In this document: in pieces, positions 37,070-58,854 of the stretch
Layout of the letters: each line of letters opens with the position of its first letter
How positions within the stretch are numbered: the stretch's first letter is position 1
Assembly (NCBI GenBank): GCA_965232465.1
Contig: OZ246977.1
Location: 66,829-130,828 of the forward strand
Direction: 5' to 3'
Source of the DNA: Alphaproteobacteria bacterium
GTDB taxonomy: Bacteria; Pseudomonadota; Alphaproteobacteria; JAQWUY01
Length of the DNA stretch: 64,000 nucleotides
Made by a program: the position numbers and the translations under genes
Notes under the pieces: generated by a model
Database searches by the model: none
What the model was told of the DNA's origin: nothing
What the model saw: the letters and a program-made list of their open reading frames with translations, nothing else

Positions 37070-37193
37070 AGTAGCATATATAAAAGTTTATTTTTATCAA
37101 GTCTAAATATACTTTTTTTATTATATACTAAATTGTATGTTTATACATCAGACATATAAAAAAAACAGAAATTATAATAAAGGATATAAGAAA

Positions 37194-38465
37194 ATGATTT
37201 TTAATAATATGGAAACAGACACTTTGGTTATTGGGGCAGGTCAAGCAGGTATTGCCACCAGCGAACATTTGACGAAAGCAGGCATTGTCCATATTGTCGT
37301 TGAAAAAGGGCGTATAGCCGAAAAATGGCGTTCCGCCCGTTGGGATTCTTTGGTCGCCAATGGTCCCGCATGGCATGACCGTTTTCCGAACCTAAGATTT
37401 GAAAAATTTGGGGACGATGATTTTGTCCCCAAAGAAGACATTGCCGATTATTTTGTAAAGTACACAGAAAAGTTTGACATGCCCATTTACACGGGTGTTA
37501 CTGTGCAATCGGTACAAAAAAATGCCAGTAGGTCTGGTTTTGTAATTGATACAGATAATGGTGTCATTTTGGCAAATTATGTGGTGGTGGCAACGGGGGC
37601 ATTCCAAAATCCTAATATCCCACCGATTGCCCCACAGGATAACACTATATATCAAATCCATTCCTCAGCTTATCGTAACCCATCCCAATTACCTGAGGGG
37701 AATGTGTTGGTGGTGGGTGCAGGTTCTTCCGGTGTGCAAATTGCCGATGAATTACAGCAATCAGGCAGACAAGTATATTTATCTGTGGGGACACACGATC
37801 GTCCCCCCCGTTCCTATCGTGGGCGGGATTTTGTTTGGTGGTTGGGTGTATTGGGATTGTGGGACTTGGAAGCCACATCGCATATGGAACATGTAACCAT
37901 TGCCGTAACTGGGGCACATGGGGCACATGGTACTGTTGATTTTCGCAAACTTGCCCATAATGGCATGCACTTGGTGGGGGTAACCAAAGCATTCAAAAAT
38001 GGGGTGGTATCTTTTAATAACAACTTGGCGGATAATATTCGACAAGGGGATAAAAACTTGTTTGAATTATTGGATATGGCCGATGCTTATGTTGCCCGTA
38101 ATGGTTTGGATTTACCCGAACAACCGGAACTGCGAAAAGTTTTATCTGACCCAGAGTGTATGACAAACCCGACCTTGGAACTGAATGTACAACAGGCAAA
38201 TGTTACCAGTATTATTTGGGCAACAGGCTTTAAATCCGATTACAGTTGGCTTAAAGTCGATGCGTTTAATGAACAGGGTTATCCCGCCCACCAACGGGGC
38301 GTATCATCCGAACCCGGTGTATATTTTGTCGGTTTGCCATGGCAATCACGACGGGGGTCATCGTTTATTTGGGGCGTGTGGCACGATGCCAAACATATCA
38401 CCGATCATATCACCACCCGACTTACATATATGGCATATCATCACAAGGCTAGCCATAAAGCATAA
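37194..38465 (+). CDS. Class-B flavoprotein monooxygenase / NAD(P)-FAD oxidoreductase (FMO/CzcO-like)
   Basis: Start chosen at MIFNNMETDTLVIGAGQAGIATSEHL. It has two dinucleotide folds (GAGQAG and VVGAGSSGVQIA) and an ATG motif (IWATGF). Confidence 0.7.
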   Translation: MIFNNMETDTLVIGAGQAGIATSEHLTKAGIVHIVVEKGRIAEKWRSARWDSLVANGPAWHDRFPNLRFEKFGDDDFVPKEDIADYFVKYTEKFDMPIYTGVTVQSVQKNASRSGFVIDTDNGVILANYVVVATGAFQNPNIPPIAPQDNTIYQIHSSAYRNPSQLPEGNVLVVGAGSSGVQIADELQQSGRQVYLSVGTHDRPPRSYRGRDFVWWLGVLGLWDLEATSHMEHVTIAVTGAHGAHGTVDFRKLAHNGMHLVGVTKAFKNGVVSFNNNLADNIRQGDKNLFELLDMADAYVARNGLDLPEQPELRKVLSDPECMTNPTLELNVQQANVTSIIWATGFKSDYSWLKVDAFNEQGYPAHQRGVSSEPGVYFVGLPWQSRRGSSFIWGVWHDAKHITDHITTRLTYMAYHHKASHKA

Positions 38466-39580
38466 TGATAACTACACATTTTCTATATGACGAACGCAGT
38501 TTTTGGCACACCACTGGTGATGCGGTATTGTTTGTCCCCCCACAAGGCAATTTACAACCTTTAACAGGTCTGGGGCATGTGGAAAGTGCGGAAAACAAAC
38601 GGCGGTTTTTATCGTTGGTACAGGTATCGGGTTTAATACAACATTTACAAACCGATGATGCCATCCCTGTAACAGACGAACAGGCTCGATTGGTACATAC
38701 GGACACATATATACAAAAATTAAAAACCCTGTCCGAACAGCAAGGCGGTGAAGCCGGTTTCGGTGCCAATTTTGGACATAAAGGGTATGAATATGCCTGC
38801 GTATCAGCGGGCTTGGCTACACAAGGATTGCTAAAGATCTGTGCGAAACACAATCAATATGCATACGCCCTGACCCGTCCCCCCGGACACCATGCAGAGT
38901 CCGACAAAGGTATTGGATTTTGCCTATTAGCAAATATACCTATTGCCATTCGTAATGCCCAGACACTATACCCCGATTTACGAGTGGTAGTACTCGATTG
39001 GGATGTACATCATGGAAATGGCACACAGCAGGCATTTTATGACGATGATTCTGTTTTAACCATATCCCTGCACCAAAATGACTTATTCCCCAGAAATTCG
39101 GGTTATGTAACCGATGTGGGTATAAATAAAGGGTACACATATAATATGAATGTACCCTTACCCGCAGGTACAGGTGATGATGGATATACATACGCCCTTG
39201 AAAAATTATGTGTACCTGCTGTACAAAAATTCAATCCTGATGTAATAGTCGTGGCATCTGGATACGATGCAGGTTGGACGGACCCTCTGGGCCGTATGAG
39301 TGTTACCAGCCAAGGTTTTCAAAAAATGACAGAAATTATAAAATCTGTGGGACACATATGTAACAACAGAATCCTATTTACCCATGAGGGGGGATATTGC
39401 CTAGCCTATACTCCCATATGTGCCTATAAAACCCTTGAAACTTTATCAGGCAAGACCATAAACATACAAGACGATTTTGCCCACGATTACCAAGGTTTAC
39501 CAGATTTACAATTACAACCGCACCAAAAGAAAATCATAGACAGCATATACAATACACACCCTTTTTTTATAACTGAATAA
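38465..39580 (+). CDS. Histone-deacetylase-family amidohydrolase (acetylpolyamine amidohydrolase / AcuC-like)
   Basis: 371 aa with RPPGHHAE, DWDVHHGNGTQ and SGYDA. Its ATG overlaps the upstream stop (TAATG at 38463-38467). Confidence 0.85.
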   Translation: MITTHFLYDERSFWHTTGDAVLFVPPQGNLQPLTGLGHVESAENKRRFLSLVQVSGLIQHLQTDDAIPVTDEQARLVHTDTYIQKLKTLSEQQGGEAGFGANFGHKGYEYACVSAGLATQGLLKICAKHNQYAYALTRPPGHHAESDKGIGFCLLANIPIAIRNAQTLYPDLRVVVLDWDVHHGNGTQQAFYDDDSVLTISLHQNDLFPRNSGYVTDVGINKGYTYNMNVPLPAGTGDDGYTYALEKLCVPAVQKFNPDVIVVASGYDAGWTDPLGRMSVTSQGFQKMTEIIKSVGHICNNRILFTHEGGYCLAYTPICAYKTLETLSGKTINIQDDFAHDYQGLPDLQLQPHQKKIIDSIYNTHPFFITE

Positions 39581-44697: not shown

Positions 44698-45987
44698 ATG
44701 TTTTCAAAAATAATTTTAAGAATATTTATTATATCGTGGGTATGTATCCCCCCCATAGTACAAGCAAGTGATTTTTTGTCAGACTCGTATTGGCAAAATG
44801 TCACAGTAAAAGATGTAAAAAACGCTATTGCCAATGGGGCGGATGTCAATGCACGGACTAAAGATGGGGGGACACCTTTAATGTATGCATCTGAGTTCAA
44901 TCAAAACCCTGAAGTTATTACTACACTGATTAACGCAGGGGCGGATGTCAATGCACGGACTAAAGATGGGGGGACACCTTTAATGTATGCATCTGAGTTC
45001 AATCAAAACCCTGAAGTTATTACTACACTGATTAACGCAGGGGAGGATGTCAATGCACGGGATAAATATGGGTGGACACCTTTAATGTCGGCGGCGTCTC
45101 GGGCCAATCAAAACCCTGAAGTTATTACTACGCTGATTAACGCAGGGGCGGATGTCAATGCACGGTATGAAGATGGGTCAACACCTTTACTGTATGCATC
45201 TGAGGACAATCAAAACCCTGAAGTTATTACTACACTGATTAACGCAGGGGCGGATGTCAATGCACGGACTAAAGATGGGTTGACACCTTTAATGTCGGCG
45301 TCTGGGGGCAATCAAAACCCTGATGTTATTACTACGCTGATTAACGCAGGGGCGGATGTCAATGTACGGACTAAAGAAGATGGGTGGACACCTTTACTGT
45401 ATGCATTTTTTTCCAGTCAAAACCTTGATGTTATTACTACACTGATTAACGCAGGGGCGGATGTCAATGCACGGACTAAAGATGGGTCGACACCTTTAAT
45501 GTATGCATCTAGGTTCAATCAAAACCCTGAATTTATTACTACACTGATTAACGCAGGGGCGGATGTCAATGCACAGGATAAAGATGGTTCGACACCTTTA
45601 ATGTCGGCGTCTTCGGCCAATCAAAACCCTGATGTTATTACTACGCTGATTAACGCAGGGGCGGATGTCAATGCACGGGATGAAGATGGGGGGACACCTT
45701 TAATGTATGCATCTAGGAACAATCAAAACCCTGATGTTATTACTACACTGATTAACGCAGGGGCGGATGTCAATGTACGGAATAAATATGGGTTGACACC
45801 TTTACTGTATGCGTCTAAGAAGTTATTCAATCAAAACCCTGAATTTATTACTACGCTGATTAACGCAGGGGCGGACGCAACAATCAAAGACGATCGGGGT
45901 AAAACTGCCTATGATTATATTTTAAAAAACGACGCTTTAAAAGATTCAAAAGTCCGCTGGAAGTTAAACGACTTGCGGTTTAAATAA
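44698..45987 (+). CDS. Secreted ankyrin-repeat protein (about 11 repeats)
   Basis: 429 aa with an N-terminal Sec-type signal (MFSKIILRIFIISWVCIPPIVQA/SD). About 11 repeats follow with consensus DG.TPLMYAS..NQNPEVITTLINAGADVNAR.K. Confidence 0.9.
   Translation: MFSKIILRIFIISWVCIPPIVQASDFLSDSYWQNVTVKDVKNAIANGADVNARTKDGGTPLMYASEFNQNPEVITTLINAGADVNARTKDGGTPLMYASEFNQNPEVITTLINAGEDVNARDKYGWTPLMSAASRANQNPEVITTLINAGADVNARYEDGSTPLLYASEDNQNPEVITTLINAGADVNARTKDGLTPLMSASGGNQNPDVITTLINAGADVNVRTKEDGWTPLLYAFFSSQNLDVITTLINAGADVNARTKDGSTPLMYASRFNQNPEFITTLINAGADVNAQDKDGSTPLMSASSANQNPDVITTLINAGADVNARDEDGGTPLMYASRNNQNPDVITTLINAGADVNVRNKYGLTPLLYASKKLFNQNPEFITTLINAGADATIKDDRGKTAYDYILKNDALKDSKVRWKLNDLRFK
44839..45878 (+). 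repeat. Tandem array of 102-108-bp DNA units inside the ankyrin gene
   Basis: Unit starts (gcggatgtc) are at 44839, 44941, 45043, 45148, 45250, 45352, 45457, 45559, 45661, 45763 and 45871. Units 1 and 2 are identical over 102 bp. Confidence 0.9.
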
Positions 45988-48282: not shown

Positions 48283-49557
48283 TTATTTTGAAAGGGTTAC
48301 TAAACAGGTTTCCAAAATATCCAACGCTTCGTCAAACACACTCTGTTCGATGGTTAGGGGGGCAAGGAATCGTATTACATTGCCATAGGTACCACAAGTT
48401 AGCAAAATCAAATTACGGTGCAATGCTTCCATGCGTATACGATTGGCAAAATCTGCATCAGGGACATTGGTGGTAGGGTCGTTAAATTCCACCGCAACCA
48501 TCATGCCCGCACCCCGCACTTCTGCAATGTGAGGTACCCGGGATTGTACACTTTGCAATCTTTGTAGTAGCACATTGCCAAATGTGGTTGCCCGTTCGCA
48601 TAAATTATCGTTCTCGATAATATCTAATACCGCATGAGCAGCGGCGATGCCAAGGGGATTACCCCCGAAAGTACCGCCCAAACCCCCGGTGGAAGGGGCA
48701 TCCATCAATTCCGCCCGCCCTGTGACCGCTGATAATGGAATGCCACCAGACAACCCCTTTGCCATGGTGGTCAAATCTGCCTGTACAGGATACTGTTCCA
48801 TAGCAAACAAAGTACCTGTGCGGGCAAAACCAGTTTGGATTTCGTCAGCTATCATCACAATACCATGTGTGTTACACAGTTTACGAATAGCTCTTACAAA
48901 ATCCGCAGGGGCTTGATAAAAACCCCCTTCCCCTTGTATGGGTTCAAAAAGTATTGCCGCCACTTGGCTGGCACCTATGGTTGTTTTAAATAATTGCTCA
49001 ATGGCATTTATGGAATCTTCGGTGGTTACACCTCTTAGGGCAACAGGATATGGCACATGGTATATGTGGGGCATCATGGCACCAAAATCTTTTTTATATG
49101 GGACCACTTTACCCGTTAAACTCATACCCATAAATGTGCGACCATGGAATCCACCGCTAAACGCAATTACACCATTACGACCAGTGGCACAGCGTGCGAT
49201 TTTAATAGCATTTTCCACCGCCTCTGCCCCGGTGGTAGCAAACATGGTTTTCTTTTCAAAATTCCCTGGTACGGATGCATTCAACCGTTCCGCTAACTGT
49301 ACATAATTTTCATAAGGTACAACTTGGTGGCAGGTGTGGGTAAAGTTGTCTAGTTGCTGTTTTACCGCATCGATCACTTGTGTATTACAGTGTCCCGTAT
49401 TGACCACGGCTATGCCGCCGGCAAAATCGATATAACGGTTACCTTCCACATCCCAAATCTCTGCATTTTTTGCCGATTGCACATACACTTGTGTCATCAT
49501 ACCTACACTAGCGGAAAGTGCTTTGTTTTTGCGTACTGAAATCTCTGTATTTTTCAT
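48283..49557 (-). CDS. gabT: 4-aminobutyrate (GABA) aminotransferase, class III
   Basis: 424 aa with GGIAVVNTGH, ATTGAEAVENAIKIAR, FSGGFHGRT, EPIQGEGGF, IADEIQTGFARTG and TMAKGL.GG.PLS. Confidence 0.85.
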   Translation of the reverse strand: MKNTEISVRKNKALSASVGMMTQVYVQSAKNAEIWDVEGNRYIDFAGGIAVVNTGHCNTQVIDAVKQQLDNFTHTCHQVVPYENYVQLAERLNASVPGNFEKKTMFATTGAEAVENAIKIARCATGRNGVIAFSGGFHGRTFMGMSLTGKVVPYKKDFGAMMPHIYHVPYPVALRGVTTEDSINAIEQLFKTTIGASQVAAILFEPIQGEGGFYQAPADFVRAIRKLCNTHGIVMIADEIQTGFARTGTLFAMEQYPVQADLTTMAKGLSGGIPLSAVTGRAELMDAPSTGGLGGTFGGNPLGIAAAHAVLDIIENDNLCERATTFGNVLLQRLQSVQSRVPHIAEVRGAGMMVAVEFNDPTTNVPDADFANRIRMEALHRNLILLTCGTYGNVIRFLAPLTIEQSVFDEALDILETCLVTLSK

Positions 49558-49650
49558 TTTATATCCCTTTTAATGTTAAACATTCCCACACAGGTCGTGT
49601 CCTCAAAGACACGGCACCTGTTATTATTGAAAAGATTATAGTCGTATTTT

Positions 49651-50631
49651 TTATGTGTTTATAAGCTGTCGTACCTTATTTAGCATGGTTTGTCTGCGCT
49701 GTCGACTTTCCAAGGCTTCATCCATGGTAACGGATATAAACTGTATGGTACGGTTGGGCTGTAATTGTCCAATGTAATCCATATCAGATGATATGACACA
49801 GCCCACTGTGAAAAAGCCCCCACCAGAAACCGCATCACGGTGCAATACAATGGGTGAAGTTCCCCCTGGAATTTGAATCGATCCATATGGATAACAGCTG
49901 TCGACAATATTAGATGGATCTGAACCCGCCCCAAACGGCTGTTCCCGTTCAACAAATTCTATGGGTGTTCCCCCATTAAAGCGGTATCCGATACGGTCAA
50001 CCTCTGAACCAACTGTCCAAATATCCGCAAAAAATTGTTGTTGGGCTTGTTGGGTCAAACGGTGCCAATATAACCCCGATAACACTTGAATTTCCGCATT
50101 ATTACCAACCTGCCGTCTTAGGTTTTCAGGCACTGATGTACCCAATACCACATCCCTTTTAATTTCTGTGCCAATGGGCAATGTATCCCCGTCTTTTAGT
50201 AACCGACCTCGATGACCGCCCAATGCCCCAAGGGCATAAGTGGCACGAGACCCCAAAACAATCGGCACATCAACACCGCCCGATATGGCAAGGTATGCCC
50301 TTGCCCCTGATTTCACAAAATCAAACGACAAGGTGTCCCCTTTTTTGATGGCAAGGGTTGTCCATATGGGGTGTAATTCACCATTAATCTTGGGGGCAAT
50401 ATTTCCCCCCGTTACAGCGATTTTTGCATGGACATTGAAAAGTATTTCTGGACCCATAAAGGTTATTTCCAAACCCGCATGATTATCAGGGTTACCCACC
50501 AACAGGTTGGCAATTAACATGGCATACCTGTCCATAGCACCCGATTGGGGAATGCCCAAGTGGTAATATCCTTCCCGCCCCAAATCCTGTACAGCTGTGG
50601 CGATGCCCGCTTTTATGATATTAATTGACAT
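49651..50631 (-). CDS. pxpC: 5-oxoprolinase subunit C-like / KipA (allophanate hydrolase subunit 2) family
   Basis: 326 aa with AGIATAVQDLGR.GY...G.P.SGAMD and a cyclophilin-like C-terminal region. It overlaps the preceding gene by 11 nt. Confidence 0.8.
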   Translation of the reverse strand: MSINIIKAGIATAVQDLGREGYYHLGIPQSGAMDRYAMLIANLLVGNPDNHAGLEITFMGPEILFNVHAKIAVTGGNIAPKINGELHPIWTTLAIKKGDTLSFDFVKSGARAYLAISGGVDVPIVLGSRATYALGALGGHRGRLLKDGDTLPIGTEIKRDVVLGTSVPENLRRQVGNNAEIQVLSGLYWHRLTQQAQQQFFADIWTVGSEVDRIGYRFNGGTPIEFVEREQPFGAGSDPSNIVDSCYPYGSIQIPGGTSPIVLHRDAVSGGGFFTVGCVISSDMDYIGQLQPNRTIQFISVTMDEALESRQRRQTMLNKVRQLINT

Positions 50632-51499
50632 GAAGAGCCTCCTTTAATTGTGTATTATATGCGTACATATCTTGTTTAAATGTATCCAATGAGAATGACA
50701 CTTGTTTTACATTGGGGGTGTAGGTGCTTGCCTCCACTTGTGCCACAATGTTGTCATATTCCGCACGGTCAATAGGGGTAAATTTGACAATATCCCCCGG
50801 TTTAAAGAAAATCATAAAGTCTCGTAGGTATTTGACTTGTTGACTGGGGTCATAAATGGGCATTGGGGTTACCCCAAACATTTGATACCCACCGGCACCC
50901 CGCACAGAATATACAGCGGTGAAACACCCCCCATATCCAACGGTCAGCTTGGGCGTATCTGTGCGGGGGCTTAAATACTTGGGGACTTCCAACTGTTTTT
51001 CCCGCCCCACCATTTGATACATAAATGGCAACCCCGCAACAAATCCCACCATGGTCACAAACCAAGGATTTTCGTGATGGGCTTTGATAAAGTCTTCGTC
51101 ACTGTCAAAGCCATTGATTTTTGCCGCATAATCCAGATCTGTACCCGTGGGGTCTTGGTGGCGTTCCCGAAAACGCATCAAAGTCTCGTGTGTCCATGGG
51201 TCTTTGTAATACACTGGCATTTCAATAATGCGGGTGTCCAGTTCCGTGCGAATATCCCCCAGAGAATTTTCCACTTCCTTAATAGTGCTTAGCATATCGT
51301 TAGGGGGTATAATATCTGGGTTAAACCGCACTTGAAACGATGCGTTTGCTGCACATATTTCAGTGACTCCATCAATGTTCATGGACTGTAATTTTTTGGT
51401 AATTGACAATCCCTTAAAAAAGGCTTCCAACGACATATCTTCGCCAATTTGCACCAAAATATGTTCGTCACCGCCGTGTGTGTATCGTGTTTTCATCAT
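50621..51499 (-). CDS. pxpB: 5-oxoprolinase subunit B-like / KipI (allophanate hydrolase subunit 1) family
   Basis: 292 aa. The family call rests on a KipI-like pattern and its position before the KipA-type gene. It has a 4-nt ATGA overlap with the biotin carboxylase gene. Confidence 0.7.
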   Translation of the reverse strand: MMKTRYTHGGDEHILVQIGEDMSLEAFFKGLSITKKLQSMNIDGVTEICAANASFQVRFNPDIIPPNDMLSTIKEVENSLGDIRTELDTRIIEMPVYYKDPWTHETLMRFRERHQDPTGTDLDYAAKINGFDSDEDFIKAHHENPWFVTMVGFVAGLPFMYQMVGREKQLEVPKYLSPRTDTPKLTVGYGGCFTAVYSVRGAGGYQMFGVTPMPIYDPSQQVKYLRDFMIFFKPGDIVKFTPIDRAEYDNIVAQVEASTYTPNVKQVSFSLDTFKQDMYAYNTQLKEALHVN

Positions 51500-52881
51500 G
51501 CACCTGCCTGTTTAATTTGTGTTGTTACATCTGCGTTTTGTAACCAGTTTTCTAGCCAACTGGTATCAAACGTCCCTTGTTGTACGGCGGGGCAATCCAC
51601 CAAGACCTTAAATAAGGGTTTTGTATGTATTAGCCCCCCGATTTGTAATTCTTGTAATGCCCGTTTCATACGGATAATTGCCTTGGTACGATCTTCGTCC
51701 CAGACAATCAATTTACCAACCATCGAATCATAAAATGGCGGAACGGTATACCCCGCATATAACGCAGTATCAAACCGTACACCAAAGCCAGCCGGCATTT
51801 GTATGTGTGATACAGTCCCCGGGAATGGCATAAAGTGCATTGCCGCATTTTCGGCATTGATACGCACTTCAATAGCATGGCCTTTGGGCGTAATATCCGC
51901 CTGATTCAGTGATAATGATGTGCCATTGGCAATTTTTATCATTTCCCGAATTAAATCCACCTGTGTTATCATTTCTGTAACAGGGTGTTCCACCTGAATA
52001 CGGGTGTTCATTTCAATGAAATAGAAATTTTGGGTAACATCATCATATAAAAATTCTATGGTACCCGCCCCCTTGTAGTTTACATGTCGGGCTAAGTCCA
52101 CCGCCGACTGTTGGATTTTTTGCCGTACTGCGTCTGGCAGTAGGCTGGCGGGGGCTTCTTCCCACACCTTTTGTCGGGAGCGTTGCAATGAACAATCCCG
52201 CTCATAAAAGTGTAAATACTTTTGTCCATCCCCCAAGATTTGGATTTCAATGTGACGGCATTTTTGGATGTACTTTTCAATATACACCCCCCCATCCCCA
52301 AAGGCAGATAGGGCTTCTGTACTGGAGTGTTGAGCGGATTTTTCAAAATTTTCCACACAATCAACAATACGAATACCCTTGCCCCCGCCACCTGCAACAG
52401 CCTTAATCATCAGCGGATAGCCAACAGTGTCAGCAATTTTTTTCGCTTCATCCAAATCATCAATGCGACCGTCACTGCCGGGAACGGTGGGTACACCTGC
52501 TTGTGTGGCAATAATTCTGGCACTGACCTTGTCACCCATTTGGTTAATAATATCCCCCGATGGACCAATAAATATAAGCCCCGCATCCACGACTGCATCG
52601 GCAAAATCGGCATTTTCCGCCAAAAATCCATACCCAGGGTGAATGGCATCAGCCCCTGTTTGTTTGGCAGCATCAATAATTTTATCCATACGCAAATATG
52701 ATTTTATCGATTGTGGTTCCCCAATATGTATGGTTTCGTCCGCCATTTTAACCGCCAACGATTCCGCATCCGCATCACTGAACACTTGCACAGTTTTTAT
52801 GTTCAGTTCCTGTGCCGCACGGATAATCCGCACCGCAATTTCCCCACGATTGGCAATCAATAATTTTTTAATATTTTCCAT
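51496..52881 (-). CDS. Biotin carboxylase (AccC-like ATP-grasp subunit)
   Basis: 461 aa with LLIANRGEIAVRIIRA, IHPGYGFLAEN, MIKAVAGGGGKGIR, ERDCSLQRSRQKVWEEAP and IEMNTRIQVEHPVTE. Confidence 0.92.
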   Translation of the reverse strand: MENIKKLLIANRGEIAVRIIRAAQELNIKTVQVFSDADAESLAVKMADETIHIGEPQSIKSYLRMDKIIDAAKQTGADAIHPGYGFLAENADFADAVVDAGLIFIGPSGDIINQMGDKVSARIIATQAGVPTVPGSDGRIDDLDEAKKIADTVGYPLMIKAVAGGGGKGIRIVDCVENFEKSAQHSSTEALSAFGDGGVYIEKYIQKCRHIEIQILGDGQKYLHFYERDCSLQRSRQKVWEEAPASLLPDAVRQKIQQSAVDLARHVNYKGAGTIEFLYDDVTQNFYFIEMNTRIQVEHPVTEMITQVDLIREMIKIANGTSLSLNQADITPKGHAIEVRINAENAAMHFMPFPGTVSHIQMPAGFGVRFDTALYAGYTVPPFYDSMVGKLIVWDEDRTKAIIRMKRALQELQIGGLIHTKPLFKVLVDCPAVQQGTFDTSWLENWLQNADVTTQIKQAGA

Positions 52882-52907
52882 ATTATTTCCCCTTCAATGT
52901 GCTGGTA

Positions 52908-53147
52908 TTATTCAAGTTCCAACAACGCATCACCGGGGTTTACAGCAGTGTTATCGTCCACGAGGAATTGTTTAATTATACCCTCTTTGTCCGCCTGGAT
53001 TTCGTGGAAAGATTTCATAATTTCCATAACGCCAATCACATCGCCCTGTTGTACCGTATCCCCGTGGTTTTTATAAGGGTCTGCATCGGGGGAAGGTTTG
53101 CGATAAAATGTACCAGGTAACGGGCTTAGTATGTGTTTTTCACTCAT
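52908..53147 (-). CDS. Biotin carboxyl carrier protein, biotinyl domain only (79 aa)
   Basis: GDVIGVMEIMKSFHEIQADKEGIIKQFLV.DNTAVNPGDALLELE, with the biotinyl-lysine in an E-x-M-K motif. Confidence 0.85.
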   Translation of the reverse strand: MSEKHILSPLPGTFYRKPSPDADPYKNHGDTVQQGDVIGVMEIMKSFHEIQADKEGIIKQFLVDDNTAVNPGDALLELE

Positions 53148-53160
53148 AGTATTTTCTCCT

Positions 53161-53889
53161 TTAATTGTGTAAGTATTGTTTCATGACTTGGTTAATAGAC
53201 ATTAATACATTGGGTGCATTCGGTGTGTCAGAATGCACACAAATAGTTTCCGCTTTTACGGGTACAAAGACATCTGTTATGCTTTTTACCCGCCCCTGTT
53301 CCACCGCCAACAAACATTTTTCTGCCAACAGCATGGGGTCTTCGGTTTTATGGTGACGGCTAATAATGATATTGCTGTTATCATCATAATCTAGGTCGGC
53401 GAAAAATTCCGCCTTAAACGCTATGTTTCGCTGTAAACAGACTTTTTCTATGATTGTGTTACTTAACCCAAACACAGGTACTTGGTACATTTTTGCCACA
53501 TCTGCAATCGCTTCGGCAATATGTTGTTGCTTTGATGCCATACCATACAAAGACCCATGGGCTTTTAGGTGCGACAACGGCATATCATGATGCTTTAAAA
53601 ATCCGCTTAATGCCCCCACTTGGTACAAAATAATATTAAAAATCTCTTCTTTGTTTATTTTCATTTCCCGCCTGCCAAAGCCCATTAAATCGGGTAAGGA
53701 AAAATGTGCCCCAACCCGTACATTATGTTGTTTGGCAAGGGCAACAGTTGTATACATCCAATTCGGATCAGACGCATGAAATCCACAGGCAATATTCGCA
53801 TCAGTTATCAAAGGCATGATTTTTTCGTCATCCCCCAATTGGTATATGCCGAAGCTTTCGCCCATATCGCAATTTATACTTAATGACAT
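53161..53889 (-). CDS. pxpA: LamB/YcsF-family protein (5-oxoprolinase subunit A-like)
   Basis: 242 aa with INCDMGESFG, ANIACGFHASDP, GAHFSLPDLMGFGRR and LKAHGSLY. Confidence 0.88.
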   Translation of the reverse strand: MSLSINCDMGESFGIYQLGDDEKIMPLITDANIACGFHASDPNWMYTTVALAKQHNVRVGAHFSLPDLMGFGRREMKINKEEIFNIILYQVGALSGFLKHHDMPLSHLKAHGSLYGMASKQQHIAEAIADVAKMYQVPVFGLSNTIIEKVCLQRNIAFKAEFFADLDYDDNSNIIISRHHKTEDPMLLAEKCLLAVEQGRVKSITDVFVPVKAETICVHSDTPNAPNVLMSINQVMKQYLHN

Positions 53890-53946
53890 TGTTTTCTCCT
53901 TAATATAGTTTTTTTATGGGTGTCGTTTATACATTATAAAATATGT

Positions 53947-54942
53947 TTAACTTTGAATATCAGCGGCAACCCTTAAACGGATTCTGTCGACTATAACAGC
54001 AAAAATCAAAATAATCCCCAGTACAACAATTTGTAAGTACGACTCGATACGGGCTAAGTTCATGCCATTTTGTACCAAGCCAATAAAGAATGCCCCTAAG
54101 ACAACATTTTCTATACGACCAACGCCGCCCCGCAAACTGACACCCGCAATAACGCAAGCAGCAATGGATTCAAGTGGCATTGATGTCCCGATGTTCGCCT
54201 CGCCTGTGTCCAACCGTGCAGTCAGCAAAATACCAGCAATAGCGGTAATTGATGCCACAATAAAATATGCTAAAAACAAAATTCCTTTGGTGTTAATCCC
54301 CGATAATTCCGCCGCCTTACGATTGCCCCCAACCGCATAAAAATACCGTCCCATCGCCGTATGATTTAACAGTAAATATAAGCCAATTGCCACACATACC
54401 ATCACCACAACAGGGGCAGGGATACCCATAAAATCCCCAAATCCGAATATATCAGCAAATGCCGTTGGCATACCATATACAGGCGATCCCCCTGTAATAT
54501 ATAATGCCAAACCAAAGCCCACGGACGAAATACCTAGTGTCATCATAAATGGGGATACATCAAACAACGATACGCCGATGCCGTTAATTGCCCCGATAAT
54601 CATACCAACACCGATACCTGCCATGACACCTAGTACAATCACCACCCATACAGATTCAGGCATCATGCCATATAAAACCGCCATTACCAATGCACTTATG
54701 ACCGAAGAAAAGGCGACTATGGTTCCCACAGATAAATCAAACCCACCCGTTAACAAGGCAAACATCTGTCCCATGGACACCAAAATTAAAAATGACGATT
54801 GTCGTATTACATTGACAAAGTTTTTTACCGTCAAAAAGTTATCAGATATGGCGGCAAATATAGCAACTGACACTACCAATAATAATGGCAAAACCCCCAT
54901 TTTCACAAAAATAGATTTTGCCATGTACATTATTTTTTTCAT
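53947..54942 (-). CDS. ABC transporter permease (RbsC/CUT2-type)
   Basis: 331 aa with about 9-10 TM segments and the branched-chain/ribose permease pattern (GGFDLSVG, GGNRKAAELSGIN). Confidence 0.85.
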   Translation of the reverse strand: MKKIMYMAKSIFVKMGVLPLLLVVSVAIFAAISDNFLTVKNFVNVIRQSSFLILVSMGQMFALLTGGFDLSVGTIVAFSSVISALVMAVLYGMMPESVWVVIVLGVMAGIGVGMIIGAINGIGVSLFDVSPFMMTLGISSVGFGLALYITGGSPVYGMPTAFADIFGFGDFMGIPAPVVVMVCVAIGLYLLLNHTAMGRYFYAVGGNRKAAELSGINTKGILFLAYFIVASITAIAGILLTARLDTGEANIGTSMPLESIAACVIAGVSLRGGVGRIENVVLGAFFIGLVQNGMNLARIESYLQIVVLGIILIFAVIVDRIRLRVAADIQS

Positions 54943-54960
54943 TTTTTATATTTCCTATTA

Positions 54961-56502
54961 TCAATCAAAGAAGTTAAGTAATACATTTTCTTGTGTAATG
55001 TCTGTGCCTGTAAGTTCTGTTTTTAGTGTTCCCCCTTGCATTACATACAAACGGTGGCTTAAATTAACAACCTCTGGTAAATCAGAGGACACAATGACAA
55101 TGCCCGCCCCTTTTGCACATAAATTGCCAATAAATTTGTAAATTTCCGCCCGGGTTTTTACATCTACGCCAACTGTAGGTTCATCAAATACATATAAATC
55201 GATATCTTGTATTAACGATTTTGCCAGCATTACTTTTTGCTGATTACCCCCGGAAAACGCCTGCACAGTATGCTCTATTTTTAAGGGGAACACATTAAAC
55301 AAAGACGCCAAACGGTGGGCTTCGGTTTTTTCCTTGCCTTTGTCAAGCATTTTCATTTTTTTAAATGTAGGGAGGCGTAATGCGGACATGGTGATATTTT
55401 CCCGACAATTTAAGTGCATCACTAAGCCTTCGGTTTTACGATTTGATGGGGAATAGAAAAATCCCTGTTCGATCATTTTTTTGGAATGGAAATGGGTTAC
55501 TTTTTGCCCTTTAAAAAATATCTCGCCCGATTCGATGTTTTCCAGACCAAAGCAACACCGAAGTAATTTTGACTTACCTGCCCCAACCAATCCCGCCAGT
55601 CCCACAATTTCACCCGCCCTTACGGTAATAGAAGTATTTCGTACCCGATTATCTTTGGTGGTGATGTTATCAATGGATAACAAGGTTTGTCCTGGATTAT
55701 ATGGTATATGCGGATATGTTTTATCCAAATATTCACCCGTCATGAGGGCAACTAAATCTGCCTCCGTCACATCTTGGGCAGTGACTGTGTCGATATACTT
55801 GCCATCCCGTAATACGGTAACTTTATCGGCAATGCGTCTGATTTCCGCCATACGGTGGGTAATATAGACAATACCAATACCTTGTTCCTGTGCGGTTTTT
55901 ATCAATTCGAACAAACGGTCAATTTCCCGCTCAGTCAGGGATGCGGTCGGTTCGTCCAATATTAAGACCGATACATCACTGCTAAATGCCTTGGCAATTT
56001 CAACCATTTGCTGATTTGCCCGTGATAAGTATTTCACCTTAGTTTTTGGATTTAAGGCAAAATCCAATTTCTTTAATACTTTTTTCGATTCATTGTGTAA
56101 TTTTTTTTTGTTTAAAATACCATATTGGGTATGTTCTTGTCCCAAAAATATGTTTTGTTCAACGCTAAGTTCTTCGACCAAAGAAAATTCTTGGAATACG
56201 GCACTAATGCCCAGTTGTTTCGCATGGTGTACGGATGTGAGTTTTATATTTTCACCCTTAAAAAACATATCCCCAGCTGAGGGTTGATATACACCGCATA
56301 TGGTGGAAATCATCGTTGATTTACCCGCACCATTTTCCCCAAATAACACATGTACCTCGCCCGCCCGCAAAATAAACGACACATTGTCAAGGGCTTTGAC
56401 GCCAGGAAAAGTCTTGATAATATTTTTCATTTCCAACAGGGGGGAACCAATTTCTTGGTTCCCACCAGTTGCAGAGGTATGATGTATAGCAGATATATTC
56501 AT
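54961..56502 (-). CDS. ABC transporter ATP-binding protein with duplicated ATPase domains (RbsA/CUT2-type)
   Basis: 513 aa. Walker A is GENGAGKST, with LSRANQQMVEIAKA and LILDEPTASL. The second domain has GLVGAGKS and FSGGNQQKVMLAKSL. Confidence 0.9.
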   Translation of the reverse strand: MNISAIHHTSATGGNQEIGSPLLEMKNIIKTFPGVKALDNVSFILRAGEVHVLFGENGAGKSTMISTICGVYQPSAGDMFFKGENIKLTSVHHAKQLGISAVFQEFSLVEELSVEQNIFLGQEHTQYGILNKKKLHNESKKVLKKLDFALNPKTKVKYLSRANQQMVEIAKAFSSDVSVLILDEPTASLTEREIDRLFELIKTAQEQGIGIVYITHRMAEIRRIADKVTVLRDGKYIDTVTAQDVTEADLVALMTGEYLDKTYPHIPYNPGQTLLSIDNITTKDNRVRNTSITVRAGEIVGLAGLVGAGKSKLLRCCFGLENIESGEIFFKGQKVTHFHSKKMIEQGFFYSPSNRKTEGLVMHLNCRENITMSALRLPTFKKMKMLDKGKEKTEAHRLASLFNVFPLKIEHTVQAFSGGNQQKVMLAKSLIQDIDLYVFDEPTVGVDVKTRAEIYKFIGNLCAKGAGIVIVSSDLPEVVNLSHRLYVMQGGTLKTELTGTDITQENVLLNFFD

Positions 56503-56514
56503 TAATACGAATCT

Positions 56515-57585
56515 TTACTTTACACGGAAAGTAGGTTTAAACCCACCAGCCGCCAACGAAGAATCCCTATCGAATGTGTTGATATTTACTGAATCAATCA
56601 CATATAATTTTGGACCCACATGTTTATCGTATGGTTTGTTTTCCAAGATGCGTACGGCTTGGTCAATGGCAACCCGCCCTTGAATAACTGAGGAATCCGT
56701 CGGTGCCGCCAAGATGTGACCCCGCTTGATACCTTGGTATACACCGGGGGTAAAGTAATAAGACATAATGTTAATGTCATCCAATTGCCCTTTGGAACGT
56801 AGTAAACCAACCGCAGCTTCGGCGGTCACCGCTGTGCCGACCACATAATCCACATGTCCATAGGTTTGCAACACATCTTCCACCAATTTTAATTGGGTTT
56901 CTTTACCCGTGTCACCGTATTTGGTTGCTACAATTTCAATATTACTGCCTTTAATGGCTTTTTGGAAACCAGTGTTACCCGCTTCTACCCAACCTGCACC
57001 AGGGGGTCCAGGGAACCATGCCACTTTCACTTTTTTACCGGCATTTTTGCTTTGCTTTACGATATATTCCCCTGCTTTATATCCCATTTCGCCAAACGAT
57101 ACCAATGATTTTGCCGATAACTTAGGCGAAGACATACCATTCACCACATCGATCACAGGCACGCCCTTAGCACGCACAGATTCAACGGTTTTGTTCAAAC
57201 CATCAAAAGAAATCGCACCAATAATAACCGCATCCGCCCCACTGGCAACACAGTCTTCAATTTGGGAAATTTGTTTATTCAGGTTTGTGTACCCACCCGC
57301 TTCGACCAAGTTCATGGAAATTCCCAAACGATTTGCCTCGTCCACAACGCCATAATTTACCGCCGTCCAATAGGCATCTTTTAGGTGGGGGAAGGATACG
57401 CAAATATCCCATTTTTTTGATACAGATTCCAGTGGCACATAGCTCTTGGTGGTACGGGGGCTGTCCATGTTAAATGCCGGTTCCCATACTTCCACATCAA
57501 ACGGATACCATGTATCCGATGCCTGTGTACCAAGTCCTGTTGCCCAGATAAGACTGATTACAGTTAATTTAATAAAATTTTTCAT
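56515..57585 (-). CDS. Periplasmic binding protein, type-I fold, TorT-like
   Basis: 356 aa with a signal peptide (LIWATGLGTQA). WDICVSFPHLKDAYWTAVNYG...VEAGGY....Q..QIEDC, ...YYFTPGVYQGIKRGHILAAPTDSSVIQGRVAIDQAVRIL and a C-terminal SLAAGGFKP are collinear with E. coli TorT as I remember it. Confidence 0.7.
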   Translation of the reverse strand: MKNFIKLTVISLIWATGLGTQASDTWYPFDVEVWEPAFNMDSPRTTKSYVPLESVSKKWDICVSFPHLKDAYWTAVNYGVVDEANRLGISMNLVEAGGYTNLNKQISQIEDCVASGADAVIIGAISFDGLNKTVESVRAKGVPVIDVVNGMSSPKLSAKSLVSFGEMGYKAGEYIVKQSKNAGKKVKVAWFPGPPGAGWVEAGNTGFQKAIKGSNIEIVATKYGDTGKETQLKLVEDVLQTYGHVDYVVGTAVTAEAAVGLLRSKGQLDDINIMSYYFTPGVYQGIKRGHILAAPTDSSVIQGRVAIDQAVRILENKPYDKHVGPKLYVIDSVNINTFDRDSSLAAGGFKPTFRVK

Positions 57586-57909
57586 ATTACTCTCCTTGTG
57601 GTTTTAAGGTAGCACATTTAATAAAAAGAATTGCCTACCTAGTTAAATTTTGGGACTACTTTACATGTAATCCCCCCGAATCATGATATTGATGCCTTTT
57701 CTTATATTTTATTAATATTTCATTTCCATTTCAGGATATTACAAAAATATAGAGTTGTCTATTTCATTATTTTGTATTTAATATTCGGAAAAACAGAATA
57801 TAATTTTGTTTTATTATTTTTATTATCATGGTACAAGTATATTATATCAAGCAAGTATATATATAGTATTTTTTTATAAACTGGTCCATTTTAAAAGGGG
57901 TAAAAAAAT

Positions 57910-58854
57910 ATGAATACAAGTGACATTAATATTAAGGATTTTCCTTTTACATTAAAGCAAATAAAATACTTTATTGCGGTCGTTGAATATAAAAAAGTAA
58001 CCACCGCCGCCAAGTATATTTTTATTTCCCCATCGGTCATCACCACCGCTATTAAAGACTTAGAATCACACTTGCAGGTAACCTTATTCGAACGCACCAA
58101 GAATGGGTTACAATTGACCCGTGAAGGCGATATTTTTCTGAACCACTGTAATGATATATTGTCGGTGGTATCCTCCACTTATAACGCTGTACAAGGGCTG
58201 TCTATGTACACAAAAAATATGCTAATGGGGACATTAAGAATTGGTTGTACGGAAACCATATCTGGATATTTGTTATTAAAATTGATAACCCCTTTTCAGC
58301 AATATTTCCCTAATATAAACCTGCGTATCAAAGAATATTCCCGTACTGTACTAGAAAAAAATATCCTTAATGGTACCATAGATGTCGCCCTTGCCATAAC
58401 CGATAATTTGGTGCATTTGGACAAATTATATTATGAAATAATCGTACGATCACAACGCAATCTGTGGGTATCAAATACGCACGAATTTTTACAAAGGGAT
58501 ATTGTGGAATTATCAGATGTTGCCAAACAGCCTTTTGTGCAATTAACTTTGGATGAGGCAAAACGCAATAACTTGAAATACTGGAAACGCTTTGGGCTGA
58601 AACCAAATATTGTATATGAATCAAATTCCGTCGAATCCATTCGGGGTATGGTGTCCAATGGACATGGGGTTACTATATTATCAGATATGGTGTACCGCCC
58701 ATGGTCGCTGGATGGAAAACGCATTGAGCGCATAAAACTGATGGCGGAAACCAAAAACATGAATATCGGCTTAGTATGGCTAAAAGACTGTGAAAAAAGC
58801 AAAGAAATGCAGGAATTTATATCATTTTGTACCAAGCAAACCGCTAATATGTGA
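57910..58854 (+). CDS. LysR-family transcriptional regulator, divergent from the nine-gene operon
   Basis: 314 aa with the HTH LKQIKYFIAVVEYKKVTTAAKYIFISPSVITTAIKDLESHL. Confidence 0.85.
   Translation: MNTSDINIKDFPFTLKQIKYFIAVVEYKKVTTAAKYIFISPSVITTAIKDLESHLQVTLFERTKNGLQLTREGDIFLNHCNDILSVVSSTYNAVQGLSMYTKNMLMGTLRIGCTETISGYLLLKLITPFQQYFPNINLRIKEYSRTVLEKNILNGTIDVALAITDNLVHLDKLYYEIIVRSQRNLWVSNTHEFLQRDIVELSDVAKQPFVQLTLDEAKRNNLKYWKRFGLKPNIVYESNSVESIRGMVSNGHGVTILSDMVYRPWSLDGKRIERIKLMAETKNMNIGLVWLKDCEKSKEMQEFISFCTKQTANM

Follow-up and report, generated by a model that had tools for sequence, protein, structure and literature searches.

PxpABC systems (YbgJKL in E. coli, with counterparts in B. subtilis and C. 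glutamicum) combine a LamB/YcsF hydrolase with a KipI-like and a KipA-like protein and couple the opening of gamma-lactams to ATP. In P. putida, the PxpABC paralogue PP_2920-2 is genetically required for butyrolactam and consists of three subunits with no dedicated biotin components, PP_4575-7 is required for 5-oxoproline, and each of the two sets has its own regulator (bioRxiv 10.1101/2021.12.09.472016). Here, we analyze a 64,000-nucleotide stretch of DNA from an Alphaproteobacteria bacterium (contig OZ246977.1, positions 66,829 to 130,828), the whole of which is called the window. Nine of its genes (48283-57585) form a predicted operon that joins such a LamB-KipI-KipA set to a biotin carboxylase (BC), a biotin carboxyl carrier protein (BCCP), an ATP-binding cassette (ABC) importer and a 4-aminobutyrate (GABA) transaminase. 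PxpABC is encoded by three genes without BC or BCCP, whereas the window and related loci hold both of these between lamB and kipI. The window cluster appears to be a further representative of a widespread orphan operon that combines features of a PxpABC lactamase with those of a urea amidolyase, and its gene content probably reflects the biotin-dependent opening of an imported cyclic amide. Narrowed to a single compound, the leading proposal, to which we give about an even chance, is a self-contained pathway for lactam use that would convert 2-pyrrolidinone (gamma-butyrolactam) to GABA as a source of nitrogen and carbon.

The P. putida system PP_2920-2 resembles the window operon in being a LamB-family system with an adjacent specific regulator that is needed for growth on 2-pyrrolidinone and yields GABA; it differs in having no dedicated biotin genes, the two being likened by description. 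Urea carboxylase and urea amidolyase (K. lactis, PDB 3VA7 and 5I8I) share BC, carboxyltransferase (CT, subdomains A-B-C-D) and BCCP parts with the window, and the expected common logic would be that ATP drives the carboxylation of an amide nitrogen ahead of hydrolysis. However, the window encodes the corresponding parts as four separate polypeptides, has LamB as the hydrolase in place of an amidase-signature allophanate hydrolase, and sets them among importer and GABA genes instead of urea genes. The mycobacterial KipA/KipI homologues MSMEG_0435-0436 also engage BCCP-biotin, which cryo-EM shows docked as for carboxyl transfer, and have no urea carboxylase activity; they differ from the window proteins in that their BCCP is borrowed from a housekeeping carboxylase, and they have been proposed to act in regulation. 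Caprolactamase catalyzes ATP- and bicarbonate-dependent lactam hydrolysis. CapAB, OplBA and HyuAB-type lactamases likewise convert lactams to omega-amino acids at the expense of ATP and are frequent neighbors or substitutes of the enzymatic core described here, but they have unrelated folds (hydantoinase A/B) and no biotin. In A. nidulans, a LamB-family gene is again tied to GABA genes, with lamA and lamB being co-regulated with GABA transaminase and permease genes in lactam catabolism. The fungal system differs in being eukaryotic, and its LamA is an oxoprolinase-type protein, not a biotin carboxylase set.

A literature search returned no paper characterizing a LamB-BCCP-BC-KipI-KipA cluster, an earlier remark on BC/BCCP-linked Kip genes being possible. 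An initial, sequence-only reading of the locus had stated that no characterized bacterial system has this composition. This holds for the biotin-containing cluster, for which none was found, but needs qualification in that the biotin-free PP_2920-2 is a genetically proven butyrolactam hydrolase of P. putida. A P. aeruginosa transcriptome lead was discarded; it concerned a plain PxpABC/OpdO cluster and not the biotin-containing system. Curators have already recognized the biotin link, since the genome annotation names KipA a 'biotin-dependent carboxyltransferase family protein', with no reaction assigned.

Gene content and family assignment of the operon

All nine open reading frames (ORFs) lie on the minus strand, and a gene for a LysR-type regulator is divergent from them on the plus strand (57910-58854; HTH_1 and LysR_substrate domains). 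The BC and KipI genes overlap by a minus-strand ATGA (51496-51499) and kipI and kipA by 11 nucleotides (50621-50631), with the remaining intergenic gaps measuring 12, 18, 57, 13, 26 and 93 nucleotides, the last of these before gabT. A Shine-Dalgarno-like motif is found ahead of seven of the nine starts. The gene order, strands, overlaps and divergent regulator had been given in the sequence-only reading and were found exactly as described, and the families it had named for the window genes were confirmed throughout by Pfam and NCBIfam hidden Markov models.

Five of the genes (lamB-BCCP-BC-kipI-kipA) constitute the enzymatic core. The BC (51496-52881; ATP-grasp type with Biotin_carb_N, CPSase_L_D2 and Biotin_carb_C domains) passes the model NF009471 (692 against a cut-off of 686) and matches solved biotin carboxylases at E = 1e-141. 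When aligned to the latter, its motifs MGDK, GGGGKG, RHIE, QRxxQK, TIEF, EMNTRIQVEH and RINAE are intact, and the enzyme is predicted to be catalytically competent. The minimal BCCP of 79 amino acids (52908-53147; Biotin_lipoyl) scores 116.6 against a cut-off of 87 with NF005457, and its E-x-M-K motif (EIMKS), which includes the putative biotinyl-lysine K45, shows at least 90% conservation across 101 relatives. The LamB/YcsF (PxpA-like) hydrolase, which presumably carries out the ring-opening step (53161-53889), matches PF03746 with 274 bits and passes the PxpA 'subfamily' model NF003814 (249 against 226), but all four PxpA equivalog models stay below cut-off. It is 33% identical to E. coli PxpA, and across 105 relatives conservation reaches at least 90% for its motifs N-D-GE, GFH-D, GAH, KPHG and C-HSD-P.

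The two remaining core proteins correspond to the halves of a carboxyltransferase. The KipI-like subunit (50621-51499; PF02682, CT subdomains C-D) is of a long, 292-amino-acid form, compared with 218 amino acids for PxpB. It matches the urea carboxylase model TIGR02712 with 110 bits (residues 5-279), more than the 79.8 bits reached with the PxpB model TIGR00370 (cut-off 145.55). Residues 3-266 align to the C-D subdomains of the K. lactis urea carboxylase (3VA7), whereas the alignment with E. coli PxpB covers only residues 119-242, at 31% identity over half the protein. The KipA-like subunit (49651-50631; PF02626, CT subdomains A-B) passes TIGR00724 (274 against 230), reaches 226 of the 500 demanded by the PxpC equivalog NF045499, scores PxpC and urea carboxylase equally and is 36% identical to E. 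coli PxpC. It carries an insertion, PFGAGSDPSNIVD (PFGAGxDPSNIxD), that is common to urea carboxylase, absent from E. coli PxpC and at least 90% conserved in 109 relatives. The homology of the CT_C_D and CT_A_B domains to the CT domain of urea carboxylase extends over their full length. The KipI/KipA pair thus appears best described as a split urea-carboxylase-type carboxyltransferase, closer to that enzyme than to PxpBC. The pair does not make the core a urea carboxylase: the four separate proteins score 520, 250, 110 and 22 bits with TIGR02712, against a threshold of 1304, and no amidase-signature allophanate hydrolase was found in the window or among the recurrent neighbor families scanned, rarer neighbors (fewer than about 4 loci) having been scanned in part. 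By equivalog scores and alignments, the core is therefore neither a characterized urea amidolyase nor a plain 5-oxoprolinase, the two identities against which the sequence-only reading had set its proposal.

Upstream of the core, three genes encode an importer consisting of a periplasmic substrate-binding protein (SBP; 56515-57585, Peripla_BP_4), a fused two-domain ATPase (54961-56502, two ABC_tran domains) and a permease (53947-54942; BPD_transp_2, PF02653). The combination of fused double ATPase, BPD_transp_2 permease and Peripla_BP_4 SBP is the architecture of a CUT2-type importer, and none of the three components reaches a sugar-specific NCBIfam equivalog. The best matches of the ATPase (xylose, arabinose and ribose ATPases) are all below cut-off, as is every sugar-permease equivalog for the permease. 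For the ATPase, it was further observed that the annotated ATG lacks a Shine-Dalgarno-like motif and that family models first match at residue 19-22; translation may in fact start from an internal Met (residue 25).

The SBP has an N-terminus resembling a Sec signal peptide and belongs to the clade of TorT, the trimethylamine N-oxide (TMAO)-binding partner of TorS. It scores 410 bits with the TorT model NF008185 (cut-off 200) and 305.4 with TIGR02955 (cut-off 310), and matches PDB 4YHS at E = 3e-134 and Vibrio TorT (3O1H) at E = 2e-58. The 4YHS entry is an uncharacterized 'CUT2 family' SBP, and the literature search found no paper citing it. In contrast to TorT, the window SBP is encoded together with an ABC permease and ATPase, an arrangement shared by 45 of 50 relatives, and not in a TorS-type context. 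Relatives of at least 56% identity adjoin ABC genes, while two sampled SBPs of 51-54% identity adjoin hybrid histidine kinases or PAS/SpoIIE signaling proteins, the classical TorT arrangement. Because of this ABC and core context, with signaling neighbors appearing only at 51-54% identity among the relatives sampled, the window SBP is probably a TorT relative recruited to transport and not a TorT.

Conservation of the unit and its genomic neighborhood

When 185,579 species-representative genomes were scanned with the KipI-like subunit, 61 loci were obtained at 52-68% identity, and a second, SBP-seeded scan yielded 80 loci, 50 of them with enough flanking DNA for analysis; the neighborhood census relied on a codon-usage-trained gene caller. 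The KipI-seeded loci span Alpha-, Beta- and Gammaproteobacteria as well as Actinobacteria. Wherever the DNA is complete, they keep the order lamB-BCCP-BC-kipI-kipA, with kipA detected in 61, kipI in 60, BC in 58, lamB in 55 and BCCP in 53 of the 61, the missing genes being due to contig ends or frameshifted metagenome-assembled genomes. Since the core order holds throughout these loci, the long KipI form of about 290 amino acids is obligatorily linked to a dedicated BC and BCCP, which supports the earlier proposal that the two biotin genes point to a chemistry other than that of PxpABC. Additionally, the biotin transporter gene bioY directly follows kipA in 10 SBP-seeded and 2 KipI-seeded loci. 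The operon is clearly predicted to use biotin, as it there brings its own biotin uptake.

The five-gene core is present in 45 of the 50 SBP-seeded loci (L098 included), so that the TorT-like SBP and its ABC genes are a dedicated partner of the core, as a check of neighborhood conservation proposed with the sequence-only reading had asked. Most core-bearing loci of this set show the window arrangement, with lysR divergent from SBP-ATPase-permease-lamB-BCCP-BC-kipI-kipA; the core precedes the importer genes in two loci (L117 and L118), and four (L074, L087, L094, L099) represent a variant with a 72-amino-acid BCCP after kipA. Given enough DNA, all SBPs of at least 63% identity adjoin the core, with one exception (L113). 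Carriers found through the SBP include Enterovibrio, Grimontia, Vibrio penaeicida, Parasalinivibrio, Amphritea, Arenicellales, Paracoccaceae, Thalassospiraceae and Sneathiellales, among others. In 15 of 61 KipI-seeded and 39 of 44 SBP-seeded core-bearing loci, the cluster is accompanied by a divergent gene for a LysR protein 34-42% identical to that of the window. The regulators associated with the cluster in proteobacteria are of the LysR type; 19 actinobacterial loci have PucR.

As the arrangement recurs in more than 100 loci of other genomes, it is far beyond chance, and the operon is widespread rather than special to the window. KipI-like homologues with E < 1e-30 numbered more than 7,800 among 8,000 candidates examined, many of them from the marine Roseobacter group, and the family as a whole is distributed over marine Alpha- and Gammaproteobacteria, rhizobia, enterobacteria and actinobacteria. 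Most of these homologues carry generic names. The cluster is also found in two model strains that have been studied in depth, on the megaplasmid of Ruegeria sp. TM1040 (L169; TM1040_RS01685-01740) and on pRL12 of Rhizobium johnstonii 3841 (L168), where its products are named '5-oxoprolinase subunit PxpA', 'acetyl-CoA carboxylase', 'allophanate hydrolase subunit 1', 'TMAO reductase system periplasmic protein TorT' and 'sugar ABC transporter'. These product names are misleading.

The last gene of the window operon, gabT (48283-49557; Aminotran_3), encodes a 4-aminobutyrate--2-oxoglutarate transaminase at equivalog level (NF005692, 746.9 against 724; TIGR00700, 585 against 506.65). In 15 SBP-seeded loci, an orthologue of 50-67% identity lies downstream of kipA in the same orientation, and 12 loci encode a succinate-semialdehyde dehydrogenase (SSADH, gabD) that passes its own thresholds (TIGR01780 in Grimontia, 712 against 646; NF008415 in Enterovibrio, 847 against 828). 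Across several lineages the order is gabD-gabT, gabT-gabD or gabT alone; in one locus (L015), gabT is followed by an aldehyde dehydrogenase gene, and in Ruegeria sp. TM1040 the segment gabD-gabT-cupin-lysR adjoins the cluster. The variation in both arrangement and lineage argues for a repeated functional coupling of the core to GABA catabolism, and the GABA link made in the sequence-only reading is thereby upheld.

Lactam-related genes form a second recurrent context. In about 10 KipI-seeded loci, caprolactamase genes are immediate same-strand neighbors of the core and pass NCBIfam equivalog thresholds (CapA, 1245 against 1000; CapB, 1085 against 1000). In Xanthobacter and Hansschlegelia (L116:5344-15149, L119, L120), the same importer subfamily, at 56-58% identity, is preceded by hydantoinase/oxoprolinase-type HyuA/HyuB genes and followed by a major facilitator superfamily gene, with no LamB/BC/Kip core beside the importer in these three loci. 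This looks like a functional replacement of the core by another ATP-dependent cyclic-amide hydrolase. Both contexts support the lactam or cyclic-amide substrate class put forward in the sequence-only reading, the particular substrate and the carboxylation chemistry being predicted from gene content.

Two further neighborhoods were observed. A multi-pass membrane protein of 430-470 amino acids lies beside or inside the core in 10 loci of Kosakonia, Enterobacter, Herbaspirillum, Knoellia, Cryobacterium, Arthrobacter and Specibacter (including L033:11875-13236 and L026:6856-8277). It has no Pfam or NCBIfam match and is possibly an alternative, undescribed family of lactam transporters. In Minwuia and Kordiimonadales (L003:1-7400, L008, L009, L013), a conserved set upstream of the core encodes a glutamine-synthetase-like protein (gamma-glutamylputrescine synthetase-like), an N-formylglutamate-deformylase-like protein, an isochorismatase-family amidase and CapB/CapA, which suggests a larger amide/lactam catabolic island.

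Predicted lactam pathway and competing explanations

From gene content, motifs and synteny we infer the following order of steps. The LysR protein, presumably the activator of the operon, would switch it on, the TorT-clade SBP would bind a small polar lactam in the periplasm, and import would proceed through the CUT2-type permease and ATPase. Using ATP and bicarbonate, the BC would form carboxybiotin on the 79-amino-acid carrier, from which KipI/KipA would pass the carboxyl group to the ring nitrogen and so generate, from a lactam of low reactivity, an activated N-carboxy (imide-like) species. The LamB/PxpA-type hydrolase would open the activated ring, the resulting carbamate would lose CO2 to give GABA (an omega-amino acid), and GabT, as assigned by family thresholds, would convert GABA to succinate semialdehyde, with the SSADH presumably encoded elsewhere in the genome. 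In sum, ATP would pay for an unfavorable ring hydrolysis, as it does for urea in urea amidolyase. The energy input for gamma-lactam hydrolysis would be supplied here as in the ATP-dependent 5-oxoprolinase and caprolactamase.

A more far-reaching proposal, held tentatively and at somewhat less than even confidence, is that the cluster represents a new class of biotin enzyme, a 'lactam amidolyase', in which carboxybiotin would N-carboxylate the lactam and a LamB-type hydrolase would open the ring. In the strongest form of this proposal, the three-gene PxpABC 5-oxoprolinases and butyrolactamases would work likewise, borrowing a housekeeping BCCP in the manner of the mycobacterial KipA/KipI homologues. 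To our knowledge, biotin-dependent carboxylases act on few substrate classes, namely acyl-CoAs, pyruvate, 2-oxoglutarate, urea and guanidine; if the proposal is true, lactams would join this short list, and a function would be given to thousands of genes now named 'acetyl-CoA carboxylase', 'allophanate hydrolase subunit', 'PxpA' or 'TorT', whose annotations could be corrected. Confirmation would also explain how bacteria pay for the thermodynamically unfavorable hydrolysis of gamma-lactams, clarify the puzzling interaction of KipI/KipA with BCCP in mycobacteria and yield components for the biotechnology and biosensing of lactams (nylon monomers). The synteny leads to the concrete prediction that the formation of GABA from 2-pyrrolidinone would require ATP, bicarbonate and biotin. 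Carriers of the cluster that can be cultured are Ruegeria sp. TM1040, Grimontia (including G. hollisae), Enterovibrio (including E. norvegicus), Vibrio penaeicida and Rhizobium johnstonii 3841.

Several observations weigh against the 2-pyrrolidinone pathway, whose substrate is itself predicted from the neighboring genes. In most core-bearing loci gabT is not nearby, and the nearest relative genome (84% identity) keeps only a pseudogene remnant of it beside eight intact operon genes. The ring size is left free as well, because 5-aminovalerate is another substrate of GabT and GabD enzymes. In 12-13 loci, a GFO/IDH/MocA NAD oxidoreductase gene is inserted between permease and lamB, in operons of Arenicellales and Paracoccaceae (e.g. 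L072:13679-14686 and L106:13596-14600). The plain 2-pyrrolidinone pathway does not explain this enzyme, and its presence therefore suggests a hydroxylated or otherwise modified substrate in those lineages. Biotin is also not obviously needed for butyrolactam, since the three-gene Pxp paralogue of P. putida has no dedicated biotin genes. Finally, the 93-nucleotide gap before gabT, with its hairpin and -10-like box, leaves room for separate transcription of this gene.

Some of these points lead to the alternative that survives best, although we consider it unlikely: the same machinery and mechanism acting on another cyclic amide as physiological substrate. Candidates are delta-valerolactam and epsilon-caprolactam (yielding 5-aminovalerate and 6-aminohexanoate, both also substrates of GabT-type enzymes), a hydroxylated pyrrolidinone, a cyclic imide or a hydantoin. 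Such a substrate would fit the equivalog-passing caprolactamase genes directly adjoining the core, the inserted oxidoreductase and the occurrence of an isochorismatase-family amidase and a glutamine-synthetase-like gene with CapAB and the core in Minwuia and Kordiimonadales; because the neighbor sets differ between lineages, diverged specificity is suggested. However, in the window and 15 other loci the downstream catabolic genes are only gabT/gabD, passing the thresholds for GABA transaminase and SSADH, and no glutarate or adipate catabolic genes were seen. Where present, CapAB would moreover already handle C5/C6 lactams.

With still lower probability, the core could resemble a urea amidolyase split into separate proteins, with an acyclic ureido, guanidino or amide group as its target instead of a ring and with LamB taking the place of the allophanate hydrolase. 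Besides urea, the candidate substrates are 4-guanidinobutyrate and 4-ureidobutyrate, which would also lead to GABA, and guanidinobutyrate would account for the GABA genes as well. The full-length match of KipI/KipA to the urea carboxylase CT domain and the shared insertion fit this explanation, and guanidine carboxylase is a precedent for a substrate shift within the urea carboxylase fold. Yet no allophanate hydrolase, arginase-family or urea (Urt) transporter gene recurs among the scanned neighbor families, the LamB family is experimentally tied only to lactam opening, and the associations with caprolactamase and HyuAB point to rings. The homologous mycobacterial complex, furthermore, is without urea carboxylase activity.

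We regard as more doubtful again that the operon encodes a biotin-assisted 5-oxoprolinase converting pyroglutamate to glutamate, with the gabT neighborhood being incidental. NCBI does name the LamB protein PxpA, on the basis of NF003814, 5-oxoproline is ubiquitous and PxpABC is the best-studied relative. On the other hand, the PxpB and PxpC equivalogs are clearly missed, and identity to E. coli PxpABC is just 31-36%. Glutamate requires neither GabT nor SSADH, yet both recur in several lineages and arrangements, and the Pxp paralogues of P. putida are substrate-specific. That KipI/KipA are regulators which sequester BCCP-biotin or, like Bacillus KipI, inhibit a kinase is very improbable: MSMEG_0435-0436 bind and sequester the BCCP of an acyl-CoA carboxylase and have a proposed regulatory role, and KipI was first described as a kinase inhibitor (PDB 2ZP2 is titled 'Kinase A inhibitor'), but with a dedicated BC and BCCP, a hydrolase, an importer, BioY and downstream catabolic enzymes encoded in a single operon, a function in regulation alone is implausible.

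Regulatory regions, host lineage and other window features

Between the SBP and LysR genes lies an AT-rich region (57586-57909; 24% GC) whose sequence suggests a divergent promoter and operator. Its minus strand shows promoter-like hexamers (57850-57822), and several T-N11-A dyads are also present in the region. The LysR protein itself reaches the cut-off of no NCBIfam equivalog.

The spacer between kipA and gabT (49558-49650, read on the minus strand) holds a hairpin at about 49590-49620, as the sequence-only reading had noted, with a predicted stability of -20.1 kcal/mol (z = -1.9 against shuffles, which is marginal). On the operon strand its stem is not followed by a U-run. A TATAAT is located some 80 nucleotides upstream of the gabT start, just ahead of the hairpin. 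The hairpin was considered as a strong terminator and rejected on the missing U-run and the z value. Since the hairpin is only marginally more stable than shuffled sequence and without a U-run, gabT is likely co-transcribed with the upstream genes, which would make the operon a single transcript; an additional internal promoter before gabT is possible. The same spacer in a sister genome (L062:11880-11920) contains an inverted repeat of unrelated sequence, CATATACA...TGTATATG. As the two spacers each hold a repeat of differing sequence, structure rather than sequence is suggested to be conserved.

This sister genome (L062; ENA ERZ25067870 contig_1, 2.58-Mb) encodes a KipI 84% identical to that of the window, and its eight genes upstream of gabT are intact. 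In place of gabT, a 68-amino-acid remnant with an internal deletion is found, followed by genes for an SNF2/PLD helicase (1069 amino acids), an Eco57I/N6-methylase (1181 amino acids) and an SMC-like ATPase (L062:12020-20876). It looks like an inserted defense island destroyed gabT. The closest relatives of the cluster from the scans are in marine Alpha- and Gammaproteobacteria (68-78% identity), a distribution that would be compatible with horizontal acquisition.

The host contig measures 2.63 Mb at about 40% GC, and its PckA is at most 49% identical to any in the 185,579 representative genomes. The window also encodes a 429-amino-acid protein made up almost wholly of ankyrin repeats (44698-45987, plus strand), and the sister genome carries a Sel1-repeat gene. 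Given the ankyrin and Sel1 repeats, the contig size of about 2.6 Mb, the GC content and the distant PckA, the lineage is poorly sampled and probably host-associated. An Rfam search found zero RNA genes within the window. On the plus strand at 37137-39580, genes for a flavin-dependent monooxygenase (Pyr_redox_3/FMO-like) and a histone-deacetylase-family protein (acetylpolyamine-amidohydrolase-like) are adjacent to each other, and this pair may be polyamine-related.

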